Shown: in pieces, positions 1,821 through 64,000 of the stretch
How the letters are laid out: each line of letters begins with the position of its first letter
Position numbering within the stretch: the stretch's first letter is position 1
NCBI GenBank assembly: GCA_965153355.1
Contig: OZ231126.1
Coordinates: forward strand, 37,200,001-37,264,000
DNA length: 64,000 nt
Origin: Flaccisagitta enflata
Lineage: Eukaryota
Direction of reading: 5' to 3'
Program-made: the position numbers and the translations under genes
Notes under the pieces: model-generated
What the model saw: the letters and a program-made list of their open reading frames with translations, nothing else
Told to the model about the DNA's origin: nothing
Databases searched by the model: none

Positions 1821-2234
1821 GTATGATAGGTGGAACAATATCCCTCACTATACCCTAACTTAGATAAATGGAAGAGGGCCTTGTGAACCCTCAGTGACTA
1901 CTGACTAGTCAATACGCACACCGCTCCTAGTTTTCCATAAAACATAATCTGAAAAATTGTTTTTCTTATTCACCCAAAACAAATTGCTTACTAAAAGTAG
2001 TTAAGGTCAATGATTGTTACCTGTTAAACCAAAATTCAACATATCACCCGAGGGTAACCTTATTAAGAAACCATACCCTTAGAGGGTAGAATCGAGGTCA
2101 AGCTAAATGCGACCGCCGGACATTCTAATCCAAGGTACTGAGTAGTAGGACAGGTGGAACAATATCCCTCACTATACCCTAACTAAAATAAATGGAAGAG
2201 GGCCTTGTGAACCCTCAGTGACTAGTTAATACGC
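1821..2234 (-). repeat. Partially tandem small structured repeat, subfamily A (324-bp period, about 90-bp terminal direct repeat)
   Basis: AGGTGGAACAATATCCCTCACTATACCCTAACT...CCCTCAGTGACTA occurs at about 1828 and 2152. Core 2064-2141 is the reverse complement of 31282-31360. Confidence 0.85.
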
Positions 2235-3735
2235 GCGTATATAACATCTACAAACGTCAAGACTCAAGATTCCCGTATTTTGATATCGCTGTTGTGGTTA
2301 AATTATTGTGAATTTGCGCATCGTGACTGGCAAGCTACGGCCATACGGGTTACGAATATGCACGAATTAGAAAAGAATTTAGGTGGATTCGTATGAAAAA
2401 CTTCGTGATGAATCCAATTTTTGAACAATGTTTTTATCCACTTCTGGAGCGAATATAAGAAGAGCAGAAATGCAAATGATCTTGAAATTTGCAATAAAAC
2501 TGACAAGGTTTTCGAAGAATACATCAAACGAATTTAATTTCATTTTATTGTTCCACTTCGTTGTTATTTGTTACGTCGATTTCTTTCTTTGTTTTGGCTA
2601 ATGGAGAGGCTTGGAATTCAATGTTTTCCTCTTTTGTTTGGTCGTTGTTTTTGTACTTACAACGGATATTTTCCCTTACTTTCAGGAGATGGCGTGAGAA
2701 AGAATTGATTTGGTTTTCTTACTTTCATCAATGTTCTTTTTTTTCCCCTTTTTTTGTTCTTCTGTGGCGCCTTCAATTTGGCTGAGATTGGAAAAAATTT
2801 CGTTCTATTCAGGATTCTGATCAAAAAATCGAATCAAGATTCGAAAATCAAAAGAACTGAAACTCAATTCGGTTGCCTCATCCAACTACCCTGCCGAGAA
2901 ATGTGGTTGTGAATTTGTTCTCATTAGACATTACTTATTATCAATATCAGCCAGATATTTTGGAAAGCAAATAATTTGACTGCGCTCTATATTTTTTTTA
3001 TGAAAATGTCTAAATTGTTTGATGATAATTCGAAATAATGAATCATGAAAATATTTCAATATAAAGTTTTATTGAAAACAAAATTTAACTGATTACCAAT
3101 AAAGGTGGCTAATCGCCGTAGGAAAAAAGTCGTAAATGCTGATAGAAAGAGAGAGAGAGAGAGAGAGGGGGAGAGAAAGACAGAGAGAGAAATAGAGAAA
3201 AACATGTAACACAGGGTATCAATATCGTTGTGGACAGGGGCATCCAACCCCATCCACACCCTAACCCCCACACACAAGTATCTAGACTGCTTGTTTTTCC
3301 ACTTTTCCACTTGGACGGACAGACGGACCAACAGACCGATGGATAGACTGACAGACAAAGCCTCTCATAGAGTCCGGAGTTGAAATAAGAGAGAGACTGT
3401 GCTGCCAGGATGCACAATTATCACCCTGGACATTTCAAAGTTCAAACAGACTTCAACTAACTCGATTTTCCTCGTTTTTTGGGAAAACGCAAAAAATTCG
3501 GAAAAATAAAAAAGATTCAAAAATTCACAGCTCCAAAATTATTGATCGCACAGAATTCTGCGTTGCGTCATCTGAAAGAGGAGAATTAGCTCTTTCTTAG
3601 CTGTTAATTTCATGCGTAGTCCCATTTGGCCCAAAAAAAGCACCAACTTCCCCAAAAGACGCACGAAAAAAGGGAAAACCAAATTCCTCCGCAGGTCTCA
3701 AAAAGCCGAAGGTATTCTTCGACTTTTTTCCAAAT

Positions 3736-10157: not shown

Positions 10158-10204
<47 letters not shown>

Positions 10205-10207
<3 letters not shown>

Positions 10208-10594
10208 GTCTTTTCCTCTAAGCGAGAGTCTCTCCCAAATTCAGGAAGAGGGGAGCAGCACCATGAGACCCATCTCGCTACCATCTCTCAAAGCGTGCCC
10301 GAAGAGAGAGGCAGTGTGAGAGAGAGGTTAGGAAAGAGAGGCATTCTCAACGATGTAGCCGAGACTTCGCTATTGACTTCCTCTCTTTCCCCCTCTCTCC
10401 ACGTCTTTTCCTCTAAGTGAGAGTCTCTCCCGAAATCAGGAAAAGGGGAGCAGCACCATGAAACCCATCTCGCTACCATCTCTCAAAGCGTGCCCAAAGA
10501 GAGAGTCAGTGAGAGAGAGAGGTTAGAAAAGAGAGGCAATCTCACCGATCTAGTCATGACTTCGCTATTGACTCCCTCTCTTTCTCCCTCTCTC
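10205..10594. repeat. 195-bp tandem duplication
   Basis: CACGTCTTTTCCTCTAAG...CTTCGCTATTGACT at 10205 and 10400. Confidence 0.92.
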
Positions 10595-11237
10595 TTTTTC
10601 TCTCTTTCTCTCTTTCTCTCGATCTCATCTTGTCTGGTACTACGCGATCGATGGTAACAATAGACTCATAATATATGGTCAATACATCTTCTAGATCAAA
10701 GAAAATTAGGTGTGAATGTTGAAACACTTGTCCCCACATTGCTAACACAGCACAAGTCAAAAGTCAAAAGTCACTGAACAAGTCAAAAGAAAGTTTTTTG
10801 AAGAAATCATTATCTCGTTTTGCAAATAAAAAGGGAAAAAACAATTTAACAAACAACAACAACAATAATACAAAACGTTAACTACATTCGTTCTCCTACT
10901 CTCATCTTGCAATGTGAACAAGAAAAAACATTCGTAACGGCATTTTCATTTTCAACAAAAACGCCAGTTGACGCGATCACGTGACTCATCCATAACGTTG
11001 GAACCACTTCACCACGACCGACAAGGCTCAAGCTAACGGCCACGAGAAATCCACGGGCGAATTCTTTTCCACTCTCTGGTGAGAGGCAGTTCCACTGAGT
11101 ACTATAACGCGTCGACTGTATTCTAACGAATATCTTGTTCTCCTTTTATTTCATGTTACCGGGTAATTTGTCCCACGGAGCGGACAATTCCAACGTGAAA
11201 ACATCCTCACCGTCCGTCACATTTCACACCCGTCGCA

Positions 11238-12646
11238 ATGAAGCCGGCATCCAACAGAGCCAGAGGTGGCGGAGCAAAAGCTAGCGCCAATCTTCGTGGA
11301 AAAAAAGGGAAAGGAAAAGGAAATGCCAAAGCTGTCCACTTGGATAGTGGCAATGTTGACAACCCTAATGTTAAGGCAATGCTGACTAACCTCGTCAATA
11401 GCCAATTTGCCCAACTACTTACCAACCACGCTGATGACTCTGATTCTGAAGACGAGGGTGACATGGAGATATCCTCAACGCCATCGCCATCTGCATCAAC
11501 GTCATACCAGCCAGCCTCAAAAACACCAGCCTCGAAAACATACAAGAGTCAGGTTGTGATTTTGGAAGGTGTTGATGACAAACTTAAAAAGCACCCGGCT
11601 CGACTTTCAAAAGCCATCAAGGAGACAAAACCTCAGCTTGAAATAAATAAAATCCGCATCACTGCTAGCAACGCGGTTCTGATTGAGCCAAAGCATCCCA
11701 AAGACTGCTGCAGTCTCCTAAAGGAAAATGCTTTTCCACCAAATTCCCCCCTTGGCACTGGAGTTAAAGCACGTCTCCCACGCGAGAACACTGTGACACA
11801 CCAAGTAGTAATTCTAGGTCTTGATGTCGAAATCACCGACAAAGAAATAGAAGAAATGCTTGATCTTCAAGAATTGCCCCACAATGGCGTCAAAAGGATA
11901 AAAAGTCGAAAAAAAAACCAACCCACTGAGCTGGTGCGGCTGTTCTTAAAAAGTGAAGAAAAGAAAAAGCAACTTCTTCGTCAAGGGCTTTATCTTGACC
12001 AGATGCATTTCAAATGTGTTGCTGCAAAGGAAGATGAGGAAAAAAGCTCACCTTCCAGTGCTTCAATTGTCAAGCATGGGGCGAACACAAAACATGGCAA
12101 TGCGAAAATGAGACCAAGTGCGTCATCTGTGGTGGTCCGCATCGTACGGCCGACTGTGACAAGAGCAAAGCTGAGGCCACTTGCTGCAACTGTGGCCAGA
12201 ATCATGCTGCATGGTCTACAGCATGCAAAAGCTACAAAGATTCAGTCGAAAAGCGGAAAACCACTGGTAGATCGTATTCCTCTGTGACAAAAACTACCAC
12301 TCAACCATCCCTACTCCATACACAGATTCTAGCTGTCGTCCATGAGGCAATGGCCAACCTCAAAAAGCAGATTGCAGTGATTGTGGGGGAAGTGGTTACA
12401 AAAGCACTCCTTGAACACACCTTCTACGAGACAGAGAAAAAGCGGACCAATGGTAAGACCCATCTTGGAGCCACAGCTCGAACCAACTCCATTGCCAAAA
12501 TGGCTGCCACTGCCGTCAATGCTAGGCCTTTCTTTGACTCCGACACGTCGCAAGTCTGTACGGAGGAGATTGGCCGCGTCGTTTTGGAAAGATTGTCAAG
12601 CTCCTTCCAACAAAACACAACAGGCCCATCTGCCAGTTCACAATGA
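11238..12646 (+). CDS. LINE ORF1 (gag-like nucleic-acid-binding protein, 3 CCHC knuckles), about 469 aa once one -1 frameshift near 12040-12046 is corrected
   Basis: The 11238 frame reads to ...AAKEDEEK. Shifting -1 in the A6 run gives KLTFQCFNCQAWGEHKTWQCENETKCVICGGPHRTADCDKSKAEATCCNCGQNHAAWSTAC, which continues in frame into the 12284-12646 ORF. The -1 frame has TGA at 12035-12037, which bounds the shift position. Confidence 0.9.
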
Positions 12647-15426
12647 ATACTTCATCTAACTGTTTGAGAATTGTCCATATAAATGTAAGAGGCATTCACG
12701 TGAATGGCCAATCATTAAACCATTATCTCAGCCGCCTTCAATTCCCAGAGATTATCACTATTAACGAAACAAAATTGAACCAATCAGTTGACTACTTTCC
12801 AGAAAATTACTACTGCGCCGCACGACGAGACTCTTCCCACGGTCATCATGGCTCAATGATACTGGTAAAAAATGGTCTTAATGATGTTAGTGAGCTTACG
12901 TCCTTTCAGAATGAGTTCAAGGAAGAAGTGATAGGAATTCGCATAAATGGTAAAGATAACCGACCGGCATTGAACATTTGCACATACTATAATCCACCTG
13001 GTAGTTATGTTAACCCAAATATCTTTGAGATGTGTAATAAGCTCAAAGGAGCTACGGTCATTTGTGGTGATCTAAACTGCAAAAATTCTATATGGGGTTC
13101 AACAGCAGATGATGCACAAGGCGACCATCTCCTCCATACCATAAATAACACAAACTTTGCCATACTAAATGATGGGAATATGACGCGATGTGATCCCTAC
13201 TATGGCACAGAGCAAGTTCTTGATATTGTTTGTTGCAACCAGAATGCATTGAAATATTTTAACTTCTTCTTTGTCGGCCCAGATATAGGATCGGACCACT
13301 ATCCTATCTCCATAGAATTTCAACATCTAGTCCCCTCAGTAGCAACAAAAACACGATATATCAAAAACACTGATTGGAACCGATTTAAAGAAATTCTTAA
13401 AGAGATTACTGTCCATGATCCATCAACGCCCGAGGAAGTTGACACAGTCGTTTCAAGCATAACTGATGCAATCATTAATGCATTTGATTCAGCTTGCCCA
13501 CTGACTAAAAAGTATGTAAGAAGATGTTCTTTCACACCCAAAATGATTACCATAGTAAAGGAAAAACGCCATTTACGAAGGCAAAGAAGAGCTGCAAACA
13601 AAGATGGTAATTCACTTCTAGCTTCATATTTACAAAAACAGATAAATTTGAAAAACAAGCACCTGAAACATCTTCAAAAGAAAAAAAATCGCGAAGATCT
13701 GAATCGAGACTGTAACACTCTCAACGTTGAGAAAGACAGTGCAAAGTTTTACAGGCTCTTTGACAGACTGACAAATCGGAAGAATAAAGTTCATCAACTT
13801 AGTCCTTGTATCAGTACAGATGATGGTGAAACTGCTGTAACTAATCGTGAAAAAGCTGACCTCTTCGCTAATCATCTTGGAAAGTGCCATAGATTGAATG
13901 ACTATCATGGATTTGATAAAAAATGGCGCAAAGAAGTGGAAGAATTTGTTAACAAAAACCATCGGATGTTTACGGCGCATAAAGATGAGTGTTATACAAC
14001 CACTGAGCCGGGTGACAATCACCAACTACTTGATTCCATAAGTGTAGAGGAAATCGCCGACAATCTAAGATTCTGTAAAAACAAATCTGCTGCAGGCAGA
14101 GACAGAATCAGCTATGCTATGCTGAAGAAAGTTCCAAGAAATGTGTACAACGCTTTAGCACAAGTTTTCAATTCTTGTTTGAAACTAGGCTATTTTCCCG
14201 ACTCATGGAAAAAAGCATCTGTCTCTATGATACCTAAGCCAGGTAAAGATTCTCGCCTTGCAAAAAACCATCGACCAATCTCCCTTCTACCATGTATTGG
14301 CAAAGTTTATGAAAGAATCATATCAAAACGACTTTCAGGTTTTATGGAACAAGAAAATCTGTTCAGTCCATATCAGAGCGGATTCCGTAGAGGACGTCAG
14401 ACTTCAGAACAATTACTCCGCCTCATAGAAGAGACCTCCAACGCCACTAAACAAAAGAAAATTTCTGCTGCTCTCTTCTTGGATGCAGAAGCTGCTTTTG
14501 ACAAGGCATGGCACGACGGAATCCGCTACAAACTCTTTCAACTTGGACTTCCTCAACGACTTATACGACTGATAAGTTCTTTTCTTACTAATCGCTCACT
14601 AACAGTCAAGGTTGGTGACGAATTATCAGCCCCTGTTCAAATGGAAGCAGGGACGCCCCAGGGCTCATCGCTGTCACCGCTTCTCTACATCATCCTGGTC
14701 AACGACATCCCAAAGGAAGTAACACAAACTACCTCTTTAAGTCAATTCGCAGATGACATAGCACTGTGGTCCCAAGCTTACACACATAGAGAAGCAGTAC
14801 GCAAACTGCAAAAAAGCATAGATATGTTAGGGGGCTGGTGCAGACGCTGGCGAATTAAACTTAATGCAAGTAAATCCAACTTGCTCATCATTAGCAGAAT
14901 TCCAAATAGTAAAACAGATGACTCCAGTGTAATGCTGTTTGATGACATTGTTTCTCCTTGCCAACATGCCAAGTTTCTTGGTATAGAAATTGATGATCGC
15001 CTGAACTTCAACAAGCACTATGACGAAAGAGTAAAGAAAGCAAAGTCACGCCTTAATCTTTTCACGCTGTTGTCACGTGGCGGAGTAAACAATGCAACGC
15101 TTGTCCGCCTTTACAAGACTTTTGTTCGACCGCTCTTTGAATACGGTTCAGTAGCAACAATTGCTGCAAATGAAAAGAGCGTTTACAAATATCAGAAAGT
15201 GCAGAATGACTATCTCCGGATCTGTCTCTCTTTACCAAAATATATTCGAACCTCTCTATTACATGAAGCAGCAGGACTTGAACTGATTGATAAACGGTTG
15301 AGTTCACTGAGTATAAAACAATTCAACACAATGAAAAGCCTCGACATAATCAAAGACATGTGTGATAAATCTCCAAATATTATCCCGCTGAACGAATTTA
15401 AAAGCCCATTGGATTTCTTGCTTTAG
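12643..15426 (+). CDS. LINE ORF2: APE-type endonuclease plus reverse transcriptase, 927 aa, intact
   Basis: APE motifs INVRG, INETKL, GDLN, GSDH. RT motifs RPISLL, QSGFR, LDAEAAFD, GTPQGSSLSPLLY, QFADD, KFLGI. No RNase H motif is visible in the C-terminus. Confidence 0.97.
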   Translation: MNTSSNCLRIVHINVRGIHVNGQSLNHYLSRLQFPEIITINETKLNQSVDYFPENYYCAARRDSSHGHHGSMILVKNGLNDVSELTSFQNEFKEEVIGIRINGKDNRPALNICTYYNPPGSYVNPNIFEMCNKLKGATVICGDLNCKNSIWGSTADDAQGDHLLHTINNTNFAILNDGNMTRCDPYYGTEQVLDIVCCNQNALKYFNFFFVGPDIGSDHYPISIEFQHLVPSVATKTRYIKNTDWNRFKEILKEITVHDPSTPEEVDTVVSSITDAIINAFDSACPLTKKYVRRCSFTPKMITIVKEKRHLRRQRRAANKDGNSLLASYLQKQINLKNKHLKHLQKKKNREDLNRDCNTLNVEKDSAKFYRLFDRLTNRKNKVHQLSPCISTDDGETAVTNREKADLFANHLGKCHRLNDYHGFDKKWRKEVEEFVNKNHRMFTAHKDECYTTTEPGDNHQLLDSISVEEIADNLRFCKNKSAAGRDRISYAMLKKVPRNVYNALAQVFNSCLKLGYFPDSWKKASVSMIPKPGKDSRLAKNHRPISLLPCIGKVYERIISKRLSGFMEQENLFSPYQSGFRRGRQTSEQLLRLIEETSNATKQKKISAALFLDAEAAFDKAWHDGIRYKLFQLGLPQRLIRLISSFLTNRSLTVKVGDELSAPVQMEAGTPQGSSLSPLLYIILVNDIPKEVTQTTSLSQFADDIALWSQAYTHREAVRKLQKSIDMLGGWCRRWRIKLNASKSNLLIISRIPNSKTDDSSVMLFDDIVSPCQHAKFLGIEIDDRLNFNKHYDERVKKAKSRLNLFTLLSRGGVNNATLVRLYKTFVRPLFEYGSVATIAANEKSVYKYQKVQNDYLRICLSLPKYIRTSLLHEAAGLELIDKRLSSLSIKQFNTMKSLDIIKDMCDKSPNIIPLNEFKSPLDFLL

Positions 15427-15642: not shown

Positions 15643-16692
15643 AACATCATTTTCATTTCATTTCAAAAGAAAGCAAGAAAAAAACAAGTAATGCGGGGTC
15701 ATGATATCATTGCGGATGGTTGGGCAGGGGCAGGGACGTAGCAAAATCTTTCTTTTTATGCTCATTGCCCCAACCGATAGTTTGTTTGTGTCCATCGAAA
15801 CTTTAAGAAAAATGAAGCCAAGCATTGGAAGAGATGTACAGGACGGGCCCATGAAATGGACGGAGCAATGGACAAATGGACAGACAATCTTATAGAAACG
15901 TATGACCCAACAAATATTTTGTCTAAGACCAATAGTTGTTAAATTTGTTTAGCCACAGCACCTTTCCAACATCCAAAGTAACAATACTCGAAAAAGTGTT
16001 AGATGGTCAGATATGGTTGAGATCGAAGTTAAGAGAGGGAGCAGAGCATCGGTCCTAAATGGGCCGATGACTTATGCTTCCACTCATGGGGAAACTTCTC
16101 CTTCTTAAAGCGGTTGTAATTTTGGCCTTTGGGCTGAGATTTAGGCTTTCAGTCTAAGGTTTGGACCTTGAAGCTGGCATTTTGGCCTCAGGCCGGGATT
16201 TTGAGCTTGAGGCTTTGATTTAAGCTTCAAGGCTGGGATTTGGGTCTTGAGGCTTAGATTAGAGCCTTAAGGCTGGGATTTGGGCCTCGAGGCTAGGATT
16301 AGGGAGGACATACAAGAAGAAGAAAAAATAGGAGATATTTCTCCATGTGTGAAAGCTTAGTTCATCAGCTCTTTTTAGGCCGCTGCCCAAAAAGTGAATG
16401 AACAGCTTAAAAAATACCGTAAAACTGACCATACAACTTTCAATCTTGAAAAAGGTTCATCAATTGAATGCAGAATCTCTCTTTTAAGTCGCAGAAACGC
16501 CACTTGACACCTTGCTGTGTCTTTCTGTCAAACGGTCGGTTCATCCATCCGGGATATTTTCAAATTGCAAGTGGTTTTGCATTCTTGCCCCTGCCCAACC
16601 GTCCGCCACTGTCTTGCCGTGTATCCGGGCTTGTCCTTCTTCTCCAGATCCTCCACCCCCTTCTTCTTCTTCTTCTTTATCACTTTTTTATT

Positions 16693-21041: not shown

Positions 21042-21208
21042 TTATGAAAGTTGAAACAACATTGCCCTTAAAAAAGGAGGCCAGAATTCTCCAATTTACA
21101 AAGGATGAAAGCCTTGCAAGCTTTCAATGGTGTTTACTCCGGATTGCTCACAACTATCCTTTACTACTGACAAACAAAATGCTTACCCGACAAAATGTAA
21201 TTAGTTGA
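21042..21208 (-). repeat. Truncated copy of subfamily B repeat
   Basis: Reverse complement of about 31490-31648, ending at the same CAACTTTCATA boundary. Confidence 0.85.
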
Positions 21209-21257
21209 TCTCGGTTTTAGATGTGAAAATTACAGTTACTCAACAATGAAAACTAAG

Positions 21258-21351
<94 letters not shown>

Positions 21352-21424
21352 CTAGTTGGATTGGATTGATTCAGAATCTGCCAAAACGAATTTTTGTGCT
21401 GTACTCATCATCATCATCATCATT

Positions 21425-22665: not shown

Positions 22666-23380
22666 CGTTGTTGTTGTTATATCATTTTCAATGTCTTAAG
22701 TCATGTGCTAGGCGACTCTACAGCCTGCTTTGTACGTCCATCCCTTGGTTGGTTGGTTGGTTGGTTGGTTGGTTGGTCAGTCAGTCACATATTTTCTTGT
22801 GCGTCTATGGCCTAACCACTCCGGCCCAGACGTGCTCAGCCACTCACTTCGCTCACTCCCTCGTTGGGCAAGTGAAATTCTTGAAAATCTGTTCACGCTG
22901 AAAACGCGTTTCACAGGAACAAACGCGTATTTGGTCATCGCTAGAAACACGCCTTAAGTTGAGACTCGATCACGCTTTTTAATCGTCTTTAGTTGCCTAC
23001 TGAAGTTTGCAATGCGAAATCTGGGATTGGCTTTAATAGCGGTTTTTGGGCAGCGGCCCCATAGGGGTCAATGACCTTTGCTTTCACACATCTGGTGAAA
23101 TTTCTCTTTCTCTTTCTTCTTCTCCGCCCCCTCTCAAACTTCAGCCTTAAGGCCCAAATCCCAGCCTTGAGGCCCAAATCTCTGTCTTGAGGCCCTAATC
23201 CTAGCACTAATGCCTAAATCTTAATCGCCAGAAGGAGAAAACTCCTTTGGGCCGCTGCCCTGCTCCCTCCTTTCTTTTTGGCCAAATGTCCGTCCCCCAA
23301 GTTTCTCATGGCTTAAATTCCCATTGAATAACATGAAAAATTGACAAAAAATGCAAAATTCCCATTGAATTTCATGGAGA

Positions 23381-30539: not shown

Positions 30540-31221
30540 CTGTAAACTATGGAATCTTTAAAGATCAGGGTTTTTTTTAAGATCAAGATTTCTAGATTTT
30601 TTTAATTTTGCGCCTGAATTTGCAATTTGTGGCGCACTGTGCGCTGAATATCATATTAAATCACCCTTTCTCTTCAAAACTGTTACAGCTACACACCTGC
30701 AGGTGTTACCATTTGATCCAGCACATCAATTACTGCCAGGTAGCGTTTTTTTTAGGATACTGAATAACCTCTGTGGGGGAAAAATTCATATTCTTAAGTT
30801 AGCGCCCAAATTTTCATTTTGGAGACCACAGTGCGCTGAAAATGTTGAATTGTAGGCGGAATTTGGCTTGACGGCCTTCGACGTCATCGGCTGCTGTCAT
30901 CGTAATTGTTGACGGATTAAGCTGAGATTTGAACCGGAGGTAGTTTTAACCCATGAGCAGCTTTGATAAAGATTTCAGCGATCTCGAAGGTCGTTAAGGC
31001 CATAGTTCGTTCGCTCGTTTGTTTACGTTTGTTTAATCATATGTTTTTTCGTTTAACAATGGCGAAAATAAGAATTAGACGCTCAATATTTCTCAATAAG
31101 TTGTAAACCACTCATGCTTTTTGCTTTAAAAAAATCCATTAGCATATAAAAGAGCTTCAAAAACTTTACAAATCTAGACCAAGCAGAGATTTTTAGCTCA
31201 ATTCGTTTAGATATGACATAA

Positions 31222-31649
31222 TTAATTGGAGAATTCTGGCCTGCTTTTATAAGGGCAATGTTGTTTCAACTTTCATAAGTATCAGTACCTTGGTAGAGAA
31301 TGCCGGCGGTCCCAGTTGGTTGTACCTCGATTCTTGCCTCTAAGGGTATGGTTTTTTAATCAATATTGCTAGTGTCAGTACTTCCATCAGTACATTAGTA
31401 ATCTTTGATTGTAACTTTTGTAAGATATTTTGTGTATACTAAATGGTATAGGCCTGTCCAACCCTATGCTAATGAGGTATGCAGTCAAGCTGATTTTTTG
31501 TCAGGTAAGCTTTTTTTTGTTAGTAGTAAAGGATAGTTGTGAGCAATCCGGAGTAAACACCATTGAAAGCTTGCAAGGCTTTCATCCTTTGTTAATTGGA
31601 GAATTCTGGCCTCCTTTTATAAGGGCAATGTTGTTTCAACTTTCATAAG
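31222..31649 (+). repeat. Partially tandem small structured repeat, subfamily B (370-bp period, 58-bp terminal direct repeat)
   Basis: TTAATTGGAGAATTCTGGCCT(G/C)CTTTTATAAGGGCAATGTTGTTTCAACTTTCATAAG at 31222-31279 and 31592-31649. Confidence 0.88.
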
Positions 31650-32349
31650 ATTGAAGTTCAGTACTCAAATTCCTGATTGCCCAATAGAGCAGATTTCAGC
31701 GCCGGAAAATCTGGCACTATTTGTCTTACATATTCTGTAAAACGCAAAAATGAAATAAATGATAGAAAAACAAAGGTAAAAATAAAGTATTTCTAGTTCT
31801 CTACATGATGGAACCAAGCAGAAATTGCTTCGTTTACAAGCTATATCAATAAAAAGTTGGTTACTTTAAAAAAGATGGAAGCAAGATTTGAGATTTTTGA
31901 GTGGATATCTTTAAATTGTCATAACTTCCAAAGTTTTTGTGCTAGAATGATCGGAAGGAGCTCAAAAGAAAGATATTTTGAAGCTCTTTAAAACCGTCAT
32001 GGATTAAAAGGTTCTAGCGTTTTTGATTACAATGCAATCAACAGTCAAAAGATCGCGTCTAGTTGTTTTTTTTTGTTTTTTTTTTTGCTATTGTTTTTTT
32101 GTTGTTTGTTTGATAGGTCGTTTGTTTGTTTATTCATACACTTATTCACTTATTCAGTTCAACAGCATAAGAATTGGGGTATAAATCATTCATATTTCGA
32201 GTCAAACCAAAAACAATGAAATCGTCATGACCGCTGATTTCACTTGAAACAAGGCCGATTAGGCCAATAAGGTGCGCCGTGTGGATCATCAAATGAATAT
32301 GCTACCCGACCAACTGACTAACGTACACAGCCAGTTATAGAGATGCATG

Positions 32350-40139: not shown

Positions 40140-40525
40140 GCCTGGAACCTGGGGCCTTGAAGCTGGGATTTGAGCCTGGAGGCGGGGATTTGAGCCTTGT
40201 GGCTGGGATTTGAGCCTTGTGACTGGGATTTGAACCTCGAGACTGGGGTTTGAGCCTAAAGACTGGGATTTGAGCCTGGAGGCTAGGATTTGTGCCTCAA
40301 GACTGGGATTTGTGCCTCAAGACTGGGATTTGAGCCTCGAGGCTGGGATTTGGGCCTCGAGGCTGGGATTTGGGCCTCAAGGCTGGGATTTGGGCCTCGA
40401 GTCTGGGATTTGGGCCTCGAGGCTGGGATTTGGGCCTCGAGGCTGGGATTTGGGCCTCGAGGCTGGGATTTGGGCCTCAAGGCTGGGATTTGGGCCTTGA
40501 GGCTGGGATTTGGGCCTCAAGGCTG
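40140..40525 (+). repeat. 20-bp minisatellite array, about 19 copies, inside a foldback-family element
   Basis: GGCTGGGATTTGGGCCTCGA repeated with near-perfect 20-bp period. Confidence 0.95.
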
Positions 40526-41494
40526 AAAGCGGGGGGGGGGGGTACAGAGAAGGAGGAGGAGAAGGAGGAGAAATTTCTCCTGTGTGAAAGCATAGGTCGA
40601 ATTGGCCGAGATTTGTGCCAAGAAGTTAGGATTTGGGCCTTTAGACTGGGATTTGGGCTTTTAGGCCAGAATTTGGGCTTCAAGGCCAGAATTTGGGCTT
40701 CAAGGTTGAGATTCAGGCCTGGATGTTGGCACTTGGGTCTTGAGGCCAGGATTTCGACTCTAGGGGGGGACGAAGAAGATGGAGGAGGAGAAGAAGGAGA
40801 AATTTCTGCATATGTGAAAGCATAGGTCATCGGCCCCTTCGGGGCCGCTGCCCAAAAGGAGGGGAAAAGACTGAAAAATGGGGATGGCAAGATATTGGAT
40901 GGGGAGATTAGAGGAGATTTTGAAAAAGTTAAAGGCGTATGTATTAGAGTAATGCACCAAGTGGCGAGTGCATGAAATTGAAAGCGGAGTTTAGGCTGGT
41001 TTTCCGCGAACCTCACTGTGCAAATGTTGAAATGCATATAGAAGTGGTGATCTCTGTGCGACATCAATTGAAAAGATACAGTCTATGCTTGAGCGTATTT
41101 TCATACAAAAGAGTAACCAGCTCTTTTCAAACATGGTCACACCCAGAAGTATCTCAAGACTTATTACTGACGGCGTAATTTTCAAGCACAAACCCGCGCG
41201 AACGTCGCGTCGCCACACACGAAGACGATATTCCATTCGATGAAAAGGAACCATTTTCCGCATCTTTTAATTCTCTCCTCTCCTCTTTTCTTTCTTTTCT
41301 AATCCTTTTTTCATCTTTTTTTTCTTCACGGGTCAAAGGAAAGGAAATAATCGATGAATAGAAACGACTTAAAAAAAGGATTGACTAATCAAGAGGAAGG
41401 GAAAAAAAGGGAAAAGAGGATTGACTAGTGGATGGGAAGAATAGAGGGGAGAGACCAGAGACATGTAAGTGTATATGAAGATGATGATGATGAT

Positions 41495-54552: not shown

Positions 54553-56976
54553 AAATTAGCTCACGTCATCTGTATTTGGCAACTCCCTTATTTACAAATT
54601 AAGAAAACAAGGCAGCCAGACAGAGGCCCTTGTTGCGCGCGAATAAGGCTCGTGCATAAACAAGAGGCTCCCTGGAAAATGCCTGCATCGTTGGTCAGCC
54701 ATAGATATTCAAGCCAAGTGGGGTAAACGAGTTACACGGGCAGTCAAATCAACACCTCACATTTGCTTGCTTCCCAATGATATTTCGTTGCTAAAGGGAC
54801 TTACAATTGTCTTAGAAAACCGCCCATTAATGAAAAATCATCCTCAAAACAAGAACAAAAATGTTGTGGACATTTTCTGTGACACAGATGCGCGGTCTTA
54901 AGGATACAGGAAGAAGTTTGTAGTGCCTTGTACCAACTGAAACCTGACAGAATCTCAAACAGCGATATGCAACTTAGGACATAAAACAGTGCTGCTAAAT
55001 AAACGGAAGATGACCAATTTTTGGAAGAAGAAAAATGGTGAGGGCCAAGTAATTAGTCCCTCCGCGTTGGGTTAGGGGGACGAGAAGAAATTCAAAACTT
55101 TTGCTATGTGAAGCACCTAAACCACCCATACGGGGAGTTTTAGTTGCGGACACGCGACTCTACACCTTGCCGCGTCGGTCGGTAGGTCAGTCTGTCCGTC
55201 GGTCCGTCCGTCCGTCACCTTTTTGAATTCCAAGTGGTTTTCGCATTACTGCTCCTGCCCAATCGACCGCGACTGTCATGCCGTGTACCCGGCCGCGCCT
55301 TATTTTTCAAGAGTTTGGAGTTGACATACAATTTTTTAGGATATGAGTAGTATGCCCCAATGGATATGGTCCCCTACGCACCCTACGCCATATCTATCAT
55401 ATTTATCGAGTGTTTTCTTGTGGTCTGCATATCTCATGTGTAGACAGGGATTGGTGACCTTTTTCTAGGTGTTGCGTAACTTTTGATAAGTTTTGTGGTA
55501 GTTTTTGAGGAGGGCATCATTTTTCAGAAATTTTAAGGGTGGTTGTGAAGGGTCCAGATTAAACACAGTGAGAGCTCCAAAGGCTCTTGTTCTTATTTTG
55601 GATTTTATTGAGTAGTGATGTTGTCGCACTTTCATAGCATTGATCGATTGCATGCGAGTAAGTTTTTTTTCTATCAATCATTTTTCTCATCTTCAGCCCG
55701 CTTTTCAGGGCACAGTGGGACGCAGTAATTTCAAACTAATGGTTTTTACCTTCAAACTGAACTTCATTTACAAAATGAAAGTTTTTTCTACTCTTCTATT
55801 TTTGAGTCAATAAATCATAACGGTCCTCTCGAGTACGCATCTCATTATTCTCATACCGAATCTTTGATTTGATTCGTTAATGAAAGAAAATCATGCGTTT
55901 TCAAGATGATTCAGTCATCGTCTTCCACAAATAAACAATAAGGATACGAGATCGCGAAAGAGAGTAATGAAGATGTTGATGGAATTCAATAAACGAAAAA
56001 GGTAATCAAATGTTCTTGATCATTAAGCAAAGGAAATTTAAGTGCTTTCTAGTCATTAATCTTGTAATTTTTTTTTATTATTTAGCGTCAATGATATCCA
56101 AAACAAGGTCCAACAAACGGATACAAGAGTCGACTTGTAAAGCCGCGTAGTCTAAAACTAAATCAAGTCAAAACCTGAAGGGTGTGGGCAGGGAGAGTGA
56201 TGCAGAAGATTACTCATTGGGCAGGAGTAGTGATGTCAAACATCCGAATTTGTTTTGGTTCGTTTTCGAGCCATTGCATTGTCTATGGTTTGAACGCTGT
56301 TTTACGAAAAAAACAAGGCCGGATACGCGGCTACCCCAGTCGCTTGCGGATGAGCAGGGGCTATGTTTGAGGTCACTACAGCATTTGGGCAGGAGCAGTG
56401 AGGCCAAAAACCGCAAAAAGATAAAAATGTAACTAAAGCGACTAAAAACCATCGATGGCGCAGAAAAGGGAAAACGGGTATTTCTTACCTAGTAATGGTT
56501 TCGCATCAATTTTCAGTCTTCGCACCTTTTTTTTCTGATTCATCGTAATGACGTGTTATTCTTTGCACAAAAGCATCTAAACGTTTTTCAAGTTTACCCT
56601 CAAATAAACAGATTTGCAAAAGAAATTGAAGCGATGGCAGCAACTGACACGAACATGAAGGTGTAGAAAGGAAAACAAGGAGAGGGAAAAGAAGAGGAGA
56701 TGAGGAGGAAGGGGAAGATGGAGAAGGAGAAGAAGAGATAGAGCAAGTGACGCGGGGTCACAATATTGTTGCGGACGGGTGGTCACTGGTCAGGGGCGTC
56801 CATCCCCATCCACACCCATTCACAAAAAGTACTCAAGAACACTTGATTTCCCACATTTCGAACGACGGACCGATGGACAAAGCCTCTTAAAGAGTTGTGT
56901 GTCCGCACATTTTATGCATGCTTAATTCCGTTATTACCTGCTAATCATACCAGAATAGCCGCTTATAGAAGAAGAA

Positions 56977-62975: not shown

Positions 62976-63029
62976 TATGAAAGTTGAAACAACATTGCCC
63001 TTATAAAAGGAGGCCAGAATTCTCCAATT
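62976..63029 (-). repeat. Truncated copy of subfamily B repeat
   Basis: Reverse complement of 31593-31647, with the same fixed end. Confidence 0.85.
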
Positions 63030-63037
63030 ACAAAAAG

Positions 63038-63138
<101 letters not shown>

Positions 63139-64000
63139 TACACATACACGTGCGCATTACGCCGATTGCATCCCGGGACTTTGCTGAATTGCTCTTATGC
63201 GCCCCCTACATAATATGACACTTGCAATTTCGTTTCAAATGAGCCAATGCGCAGCTCTCAAGCTTGATGGGAATATGTCAAAAACTCAAGGACTGACTTC
63301 AACTTATTTCCTGACAAGCATATAAAGTACATGTGTGGAGCTTGGCCATTATAACAAGTGATGCGGGTTCACAATATTGTTGCGGATGTGTGGGCAGGGG
63401 CACCCAACCCCCATCCACATCCAACGCCCCTTCCAACCCCCCTTCCAACACACACACATGCACAAAAAGCTTCTACAACACTCGTTTTCCCACTTTTCAA
63501 CTCAATCACCTCTACAGATTGACGGACCGACAAACCAACTGACGGACGGACAAAGCCTCTTATAGAGTTGCGTGTCCGCAACTAAAGAGAAAACAAAAAA
63601 ATCAAACTATCAATTGTCAACCACCTCATCGAAAGACATGTTGTAAATCGTTTGCGTCAGTGTTACGCATTTCACATGTTTGATTTTCATGCATTCAAGA
63701 AAACATGGCACGGTTTATTTTACAGCGTTTTTCAGCGTCATGGGAAAAAACAAGGCCAACACCTATAAGTCGCGTGCGACACTTTCTGACTTAGAATAAA
63801 TTAGAATGCCTGTAAGAATGACTTAAAATGACTTTGAATGACCTAACATGACTTAAAATGACCAACAAGGACTTAAAATGATGGAATGACCTAATGACCA
63901 AAAATGACTTAAAGTGACTTAGAGTGACTTAAAATGACTTAAAATGACTTAGAATGACCTAGAATGACTTAAAATGCCTTAAAATTATTTAGAATGACTA

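Follow-up and report, generated by a model that had tools for sequence, protein, structure and literature searches.

A short, high-copy repeat family with a fixed 3′ end in Flaccisagitta enflata: a possible non-autonomous Penelope-type retroelement without a hammerhead

A family of short dispersed repeats was characterized in a 64-kb stretch of contig OZ231126.1 of Flaccisagitta enflata (positions 37,200,001 to 37,264,000; hereafter the window). In total, five loci of the family were recognized, three belonging to subfamily B, one to subfamily A, and one to subfamily C. The units are short (about 324-370 bp), non-coding, and very high-copy, fall into at least three subfamilies in the window, and share a common terminus, TCATA, at all five loci, beyond which the flanks are unrelated. 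The family may well be a hammerhead-less, non-autonomous retroelement of the Penelope type, a reading held with middling confidence, in which a tail-to-head RNA would be copied from a fixed internal start and a conserved hairpin at the head of the unit (hairpin 2) would be the putative docking site of the reverse transcriptase (RT); it most likely adds a new family to a known kind and is not a new ribozyme.

This is the best reading of several observations: the fixed 3′ end with variable 5′ ends, the two of five loci that exceed one unit, and the arrival of one of them as a single block; the strand asymmetry both of the wobble pairs in a second hairpin (hairpin 1) and of the fold energy of the B junction domain; and the conservation of the tail end, linker, and hairpin 2 set against unalignable bodies, with no listed 5′ end at the unit start (31278). 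Variant frequencies at positions 31309 and 31325 possibly add to it. A first-pass annotation of this DNA had proposed a non-autonomous retro-mobile element of the retrozyme or Penelope pseudo-long terminal repeat (pLTR) type, and that general proposal holds as the best reading, given the fixed 3′ end, the diverse flanks, the 5′-truncated copies, the 1.2-1.3-mers present as single insertions with 5-bp repeats, and the contigs found in RNA libraries.

The four copies listed in the first-pass annotation were all recovered by blastn, but a fifth locus, the 5′-truncated copy of subfamily C at ~55520-55637, had been missed; it was first flagged by a weak blastn match and had an E value of 4e-24 in a profile search (Table 1). 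The two 5′-truncated B copies are close to the B unit at 31278-31649, with 96.1% identity over 154 bp for 21195-21042 (E 2e-54) and 95.2% over 63 bp for 63038-62976. The proposed unit periods and the two partly tandem loci were likewise borne out by blastn: in the B 1.2-mer, 31222-31279 and 31592-31649 are 98.3% identical over 58 bp, the upstream partial copy also being matched by an nhmmer profile of the tail (E 6e-9), and in the A 1.3-mer the repeat arms 2231-2145 and 1907-1821 are 92.0% alike over 87 bp. The B loci share one 3′ stop, and A stops at the aligned position, again as proposed; the base adjoining the fixed end is T, T, A, C, and G across the five loci. Profile searches of the window returned no copies beyond seven tails and two cores.

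Two further features of these copies were observed. The two shortest B copies begin within ~7 nt of each other (31222 and 63030-63038, at 315 and 308 of the unit), just upstream of a small hairpin, GGAG...CTCC, and their near-identical start could be due to chance, a preferred RT stop, a transcription start in the tail, or a solo repeat left by recombination. Microsatellites lie within 50 bp on the 5′ side of two of the five copies, (TTG)n at 21258-21352 and (TG)n at 63040-63140, and recall the microsatellite targeting reported for some clades of Penelope-like elements (PLEs).

Table 1. Positions in the window of the family's copies, of the features of its junction and tail, and of the neighboring retrotransposon
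Feature	Positions	Strand	Remarks
Upstream partial B copy	31222-31277	+	Tail, last ~56 nt of unit; pLTR-like direct repeat of the 1.2-mer
Full B unit	31278-31648	+	Period 370 bp; ends ...CAACTTTCATA(A)
5′-truncated B copy	21042-21212	-	Unit positions ~205-371
Tail-only B copy, ~55-63 bp	62976-63038	-	Abuts (TG)n microsatellite
Subfamily C, 5′-truncated copy	~55520-55637	+	Hairpin 1 at 55569-55589; shared 3′ end ...CACTTTCATA
Full A unit	1821-2144	-	Period 324 bp; hairpin 2 at ~2141-2071, hairpin 1 at 1893-1873; end ...CCTATCATA
Upstream partial A copy, ~100 nt	2145-2245	-	Contains hairpin 1 at 2217-2197
Hairpin 1 of B	31564-31584	+	7-bp stem, loop TTGCAAG, ~64 nt before 3′ end
Hairpin 2	31286-31348	+	Interrupted ~22-bp stem, variable loop 31309-31325; starts 8 nt past unit junction
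P0 5′ arm, GGCAATGTTG	31254-31263	+	In tail; pairs with 31361-31370
P0 3′ arm, CAATATTGCT	31361-31370	+	Downstream of hairpin 2
CATAA, 5′ copy of 5-bp flanking direct repeat	31217-31221	+	3′ copy at 31644-31648
Apparently intact non-LTR retrotransposon (LINE)	11199-15426	+	ORF1-like frame of 362 aa, ORF2 of 962 aa

Abundance, terminus, and mode of insertion were read from contigs of public sequencing runs, which comprise DNA runs of one organism together with marine and plankton metagenomes and metatranscriptomes; 20 of the 24 runs listed contain part of the stretch, and 8 of those 20 are RNA. Contigs from DNA runs X1 and X3 and RNA runs X9 and X17 were aligned to 31150-31750 at a likeness of at least 85%, and the numbers that align, 6207, 2304, 142, and 10, respectively, mark the family as extremely abundant. 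Word share places the core in four RNA libraries, and contig alignment places it in two. At 31647, 81 X1 contigs diverge into unlike sequence (agreement 0.35), a pile that looks like a true terminus with many different flanks, and summed contig depth falls ~20-fold past 31653. A gradient of contig depth rising toward the 3′ end was also seen and was set aside as evidence, as contig depth cannot rank parts of the stretch.

The B 1.2-mer proved to have an empty counterpart. A joint from 31216 to 31644, which skips 427 bases and at which 5 letters fit either side, occurs in 6 contigs of X1, 1 of X3, and 2 of X9, and loose ends at 31644 and 31221 each reproduce the opposite flank; the 1.2-mer is therefore one 427-bp insertion (57 + 370), a block missing from paralogous copies of the repeat that hosts it. 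The insertion is flanked by a direct repeat, CATAA, the 3′ copy of which overlaps the terminal CATA of the element, and ATACG is repeated at both flanks of the A 1.3-mer. Each of these direct repeats shares letters with the terminal (C)ATA of its unit, an arrangement that a staggered cut and priming on the RNA end would be expected to leave. For the copy at 21042-21212, a flanking repeat TAAA is possible, and the copy next to (TG)n has none. The flanks of the B 1.2-mer (31150-31216 and 31649-31750) are themselves another high-copy repeat, with summed X1 contig depth up to ~9e5, of which no second, empty copy was found within the window.

Comparison of the subfamilies revealed where the units are conserved. 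The bodies of A and B could not be aligned by blastn, and the stretch common to both consists of the last ~25 nt of the tail, a linker of 8-11 nt, hairpin 2, and ~15 nt after it (79% identity over 104 bp by blastn; 84% mean column identity over 129 columns), the unpaired stretch after hairpin 2 being identical at 14 of 15 positions. The earlier statement that A and B are barely alignable outside their pairing segments was too narrow, because the tail end, the linker, and the ~15 nt past hairpin 2 are also common to both. A 115-nt contig of RNA library X9, the deepest among the X9 contigs listed, covers exactly 31253-31367 with 1 difference. In X9 and X17, contigs of other subfamilies come into the core through another tail (loose ends at 31267 and 31284) and continue beyond it into another body (loose ends at 31356 and 31359); since these contigs run from tail into hairpin 2, the conserved module straddles the junction of tail and head and is present only at places where a head comes after a tail. 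The 24 loose-end clusters listed, out of 802, include no 5′ end at position 31278, the start of the unit, and heads are therefore not usually preceded by random flank.

Hairpin 2 adjoins the unit junction, as the first-pass annotation had observed, but two other points of its description proved weaker. Its arms had been described as covarying, but between A and B 20 of the 22 pairs are invariant, one shows compensation from G.U to U-A, and another does not form in B, a pattern of conservation, not covariation. The T-run noted after it is peculiar to the copy at 31222-31648, as A reads TTTCTT there and 31356 is C in 83% of X1 depth. Among the 40 of 49 rows listed for variants of at least 10% in contigs, none falls in the arms of hairpin 2; the loop and inner stem at 31309-31325 vary. 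In X1, X3, X9, and X17, respectively, the paired position 31309 carries G>A at 0.8, 0.08, 40, and 58%, and its counterpart 31325 carries C>T at 11, 25, 48, and 67%, so that G>A exceeds C>T in none of the four runs; these are separate frequencies, in which linkage is unseen, and they possibly fit a path from G-C through G.U to A-U. A closing helix, P0, encloses the junction in B with 10 bp (Watson-Crick and G.U) and is part of the minimum-energy fold; in other members of the family, contig loose ends show that the sequence downstream of hairpin 2 is CAACATTGCC, the perfect complement of the 5′ arm.

Hairpin 1 has the arms GAAAGC/GCTTTC in B, GAGGGT/GCCCTC in A, and GAGAGC/GCTCTT in C. Over its 7 stem positions, B has 7 Watson-Crick pairs, C has 5 and 2 G.U pairs, and A has 5, 1 G.U pair, and 1 mismatch; pairing holds in 20 of 21 cells, compared with at most 57% when the partner is slid. 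At positions 4 and 5 (two of the seven pairs) both sides have changed with pairing kept, and the compensation first claimed for this hairpin is thus present at two positions, but its covariation does not reach significance, because only three distinct rows exist (67 of 500 shuffles equal it). The loop keeps T..(C/A)AAG, and all wobbles lie on the element's strand, in keeping with the earlier remark that they fall on one strand.

A compensated stem near a fixed end could also belong to a short interspersed nuclear element (SINE), and a SINE-like retroposon dependent on a long interspersed nuclear element (LINE) is an unlikely, though not negligible, account of the family. Under it, hairpin 1 and the terminal ~20 nt would be a tail recognized by a stringent LINE RT, hairpin 2 would be a conserved 5′ head (a promoter or stability element), and the 1.2-1.3-mers would stem from template switches or from insertion beside an older copy. 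Target-primed reverse transcription of the LINE type classically leaves a fixed 3′ end, 5′-truncated copies, and short repeats that overlap the 3′ end, the compensated pairs and conserved loop of hairpin 1 lie ~64 nt from the end, and a LINE with an intact-looking ORF2 (962 aa, with APE and RT domains) is present in the same window. SINEs usually have a conserved head with a variable body and tail, and the conserved head and variable body and tail seen here fit that layout. However, the 3′ untranslated region (3′UTR) of this LINE, the one LINE compared, bears no likeness to any unit (local alignment scores of 13-17, within shuffles), and it was rejected as a tail-sharing partner. No tRNA-, 5S-, or 7SL-like head was found either: ARAGORN returned 0 tRNA genes, and tRNA, 5S, and 7SL are absent from the Rfam matches at E up to 10. 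A loose by-eye likeness of TTGGTAGAG and CTCGATTCT to A and B boxes was dropped, and so was a by-eye likeness to 5S and 7SL. Several runs of at least 4 T in both units would stop RNA polymerase III (Pol III). Furthermore, conservation crosses the tail-head junction, with the tails of several subfamilies continuing into hairpin 2 in contigs, two of the five loci exceed one unit, and the loose ends listed contain no pile of 5′ ends at the unit start.

In a Penelope-type mode, by comparison, the family would spread as PLEs and their non-autonomous pLTR derivatives do, through target-primed reverse transcription. Tail-to-head copies, tandem or partly tandem, would first be transcribed into an RNA template. 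An RT supplied in trans by a PLE partner, possibly from a hammerhead-less clade such as Naiad, would then dock on a conserved RNA module composed of the last ~25 nt of the tail and hairpin 2, which in such a transcript would lie just downstream of the tail, the module perhaps being closed by P0. Synthesis of cDNA would begin at one internal site, the ...TCATA end, and copying toward the 5′ end would halt anywhere, sometimes past one unit length; an internal start combined with a variable 5′ stop would yield the fixed 3′ end, the 5′-truncated copies, and the 1.2-1.3-mers with their extra piece 5′. Hairpin 1 would be a second conserved RNA element of the template. Such a mode would account for a family in which one end is fixed and a 5′ terminus is missing, conservation spans the junction, insertion occurs in one piece, and a ribozyme is lacking.

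Several results weigh against the Penelope-type reading. No domain of a PLE ORF (PLE-type RT or GIY-YIG) was found among the 26 open reading frames (ORFs) sent to Pfam, out of 85 non-repetitive ORFs of at least 90 aa; the sole coding element recognized in the window is the LINE with its APE and RT domains, the other 25 ORFs being domain-free. RNA structure is undemonstrated because hairpin 2 is almost without covariation and the folds are no stabler than shuffles, with z of -0.30 and -1.70 for hairpin 2 against dinucleotide shuffles and, for the 146-nt domain, of -0.26 and -0.15. In B, P0 is marginal, being reached by 81 of 2000 shuffles, and the best helix in A is not significant (529 of 2000). 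The alignable material in the window amounts to two cores and seven tails, and all four aligned runs consist of contigs, in which RNA ends, circles, strand, level, and true transcription are unreadable. The association with microsatellites is not significant (two of five copies within 50 bp, with 0.17 expected per copy). A 30-40-bp tail extension and an inverted 5′-truncated companion copy were seen at none of the five loci, which is weak evidence because both are optional in PLEs and only five copies are at hand. Finally, the flanking repeats here share letters with the end of the element, whereas in the anole PLE the site of RT initiation is not homologous to the target.

The two strands of the B domain differ sharply in pairing, which bears on a further explanation. 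Read on the opposite strand, the family could be a non-autonomous rolling-circle DNA transposon of the Helitron/Helentron kind, with TATGAAAG... as its fixed 5′ end, P0 as subterminal inverted repeats, hairpin 2 as the palindrome ~8 nt from the 3′ terminus, and tandems arising through termination bypass; we regard this as very improbable. The geometry does resemble that of HINEs, P0 and hairpin 2 occupying the places of the subterminal repeats and palindrome (PMC4067079), and the short copies at 31222-31277 and 62976-63038 stop within ~7 nt of each other just past the small GGAG...CTCC hairpin. However, the B domain folds at -32.0 kcal/mol on the element strand and at only -16.8 kcal/mol on the strand that would be transferred (z +2.28, worse than shuffles), where P0 keeps only 6 bp. 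Direct repeats of 5 bp flank two insertions, whereas such elements make none (PMC4067079). The ends on that strand, TATGAAAG... and ...GATACT, are not 5′-TC and CTRR-3′, and the bases next to the fixed end follow no A^T or T^T rule. Three of the five loci (21042-21212, 62976-63038, and 55520-55637), along with the partial copy of each 1.x-mer, would lack the 3′ terminator, normally the best-kept part, and the putative subterminal repeats lie ~13 nt from one end, not 2-4, and ~85-95 nt from the other, not 38-60.

Known catalytic RNAs were sought in the same sequences. The hammerhead core motif is CTGANGA...GAAA, and a scan for it with at most 1 mismatch and a helix II of at least 3 bp, over both strands of 10 sequences (the A and B units self-joined across the junction and the A, B, and C loci), returned 0 candidates. 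Rfam gave 0 matches at the gathering threshold over the whole window, and at E up to 10 the B and A loci matched only unrelated bacterial, nematode, human, and miRNA families (E 1.7-7.2), with no hammerhead among them. Rfam includes families for the hepatitis delta virus (HDV)-like, twister, twister-sister, pistol, hatchet, hairpin, VS, and Hovlinc ribozymes, none of which matched the window at the gathering threshold or the B and A loci at E up to 10. A nested double pseudoknot of the HDV type was also tried by hand and abandoned, as no P1 partner was found for the first unit nucleotides. The failure of the first-pass annotation to see a hammerhead, HDV-like, or twister core was therefore confirmed, and the comparison with Rfam ribozymes and Pol III RNAs that it had recommended yielded nothing meaningful at E up to 10.

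Least probable of the explanations weighed here is a retrozyme-like element with a new self-cleaving or processed RNA motif, its junction placed in the internal loop between P0 and hairpin 2. Cleavage at the junction would produce the fixed 3′ end and monomers that could circularize and undergo rolling-circle reverse transcription, and, with the same slight probability, the junction domain (tail end, internal loop, hairpin 2, invariant stretch, and P0) would be a new RNA-processing motif, either a self-cleaving ribozyme or a host-nuclease site cutting at ...CAUA. Conserved sequence does flank the junction on both sides, including the nearly identical unpaired stretch after hairpin 2, a circle easily yields copies longer than one unit, and the core occurs in the RNA libraries named above; unit size, low GC, and partial tandems match those of animal non-LTR retrozymes (PMC7229834). 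Set against this are the empty ribozyme searches and the failed HDV-like fit, folds of no more than ordinary stability, and arrays that in the window reach only 1.2- and 1.3-mers, the contigs being too short to show arrays; moreover, internal RT initiation accounts for the fixed end without any cleavage. The self-cleaving or circular RNA with a new motif put forward in the first-pass annotation thus found no positive support, there being no hammerhead, no Rfam family, and ordinary stability, and on present evidence no new class of catalytic or structured RNA is added.

Searches beyond the window gave little. Scans for the core motif returned 0 copies in metagenome contigs and 0 in genome contigs, and an 18-mer match in a viral contig was rejected as chance, as it lies in a phage coding region with no hairpin context. 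The literature search for family motifs found only two unrelated mouse papers sharing a 12-mer, and among the papers listed in a search for PLEs in copepods no relevant description turned up.

The rest of the window is rich in microsatellites and minisatellites (235 TRF rows), with ~8% of its bases in perfect simple repeats of at least 20 bp. The ORF2 of the LINE has the domains RVT_1 (1.7e-39) and Exo_endo_phos_2 (1e-17) by Pfam, and its closest relatives are proteins 90% and 80% identical from metagenome assemblies. Its 3′UTR ends in a short (CATTT)-like repeat, ...TTTCATTTCATTTCA, and has only the pentamer TTTCA in common with the tail of the family. A 195-bp tandem repeat at 10181-10595 (2.1 copies, 89% matches), ~600 bp upstream of the first ORF of the LINE, may be a repeated 5′UTR monomer of that element. 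Arrays with a 20-bp unit (ATTTGGGCCTTGAGGCTGGG and variants, up to 18.7 copies) at 16119-16304, 23142-23221, and 40152-40705, on both strands, are a dispersed minisatellite family.

If the Penelope-type reading is correct, the family would be a compact natural example of a mechanism that is still poorly understood, in which conservation within a 370-bp template would mark the RT start and the ~100 nt of RNA needed, downstream sequence included, and it would offer a minimal natural substrate for the biochemistry of PLE-type internal initiation. It would also indicate that retrozyme-like mini-elements can thrive without a hammerhead; were the junction domain an RNA-processing motif after all, the family would be the first retrozyme class without one. 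The family is very abundant in a marine planktonic animal and appears in plankton metagenomes and metatranscriptomes, in which repeats of this sort can mislead assembly and annotation.

Among known systems, SINEs with a stringent LINE tail share with the family a conserved, compensated stem-loop near a fixed 3′ end and 5′ truncation; in the eel pair UnaL2/UnaSINE1, the stem-loop in the LINE 3′ tail carried by the SINE is reportedly recognized by the partner RT. Unlike them, the family has no Pol III head, contains internal T runs, is conserved across its junction, and does not match the LINE of the window. HINEs have subterminal inverted repeats and a palindrome 8-35 bp from the 3′ end and form tandem arrays by terminator bypass, and Helitrons and Helentrons are defined by 5′-TC and CTRR-3′ or T-run ends and by an A^T or T^T target that is not duplicated on insertion (Thomas et al., 2014, PMC4067079). 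On its opposite strand, the family resembles HINE/DINE-1 elements in having putative subterminal inverted repeats, a palindrome near one terminus, and tandem copies, but differs in its flanking duplications, lack of a TT target, poor pairing on that strand, and other repeat-to-end distances.

The family resembles animal non-LTR retrozymes (Cervera and de la Pena, 2020, PMC7229834) in its non-coding unit of 150-450 bp, its low GC, its partly tandem copies, its occurrence in RNA libraries, and a presumed reliance on PLEs. Retrozymes are expressed as self-cleaved linear and circular monomer RNAs; they differ in the defining type I hammerhead that each of their units carries and in forming dimers to large multimers, compared with only 1.2-1.3-mers here. 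A recent preprint relates these retrozymes to PLE pLTRs (Li et al., 2026, 10.64898/2026.07.22.740005). In PLEs themselves, partial tandems with 5′-truncated upstream copies are a hallmark, and Naiad and Chlamys elements, which are without canonical hammerheads, have multiplied to tens of thousands of copies in invertebrates, a crab among them; some of their derivatives are non-autonomous, form pLTRs, and insert head to tail, and PLE copies can also have an optional 30-40-bp tail extension and inverted 5′-truncated companion copies (Craig et al., 2021, PMC8557442). The family resembles these pLTR-forming, non-autonomous derivatives in its partial head-to-tail insertions (two of five loci), 5′-truncated upstream copy, fixed 3′ end that bears no poly(A), great abundance of copies, lack of a canonical hammerhead, and two of five copies beside microsatellites; it differs in having neither extension nor inverted companion at its five loci and in flanking repeats that overlap the element's end.

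The closest mechanistic parallel is the anole PLE Poseidon (Anolis carolinensis), for which a multimeric transcript serves as template. Its RT initiates at a stem-loop, at fixed sites inside that transcript, and requires ~55 nt of RNA beyond the start on the downstream side; insertion does not depend on the hammerhead, genomic copies end at the RT start sites, and the start has no homology to the cut target (Frangieh et al., 2024, PMC11167929). Unlike the family, Poseidon is autonomous, carries a hammerhead, and starts inside an AC-rich stem-loop. The two agree in an AT-rich target and in a fixed 3′ end that can be read as the start of cDNA synthesis by a stem-loop within a multimeric transcript, and the RNA that Poseidon requires downstream of its start, for protein binding, is matched here by a conserved hairpin 8 nt past the 3′ end.

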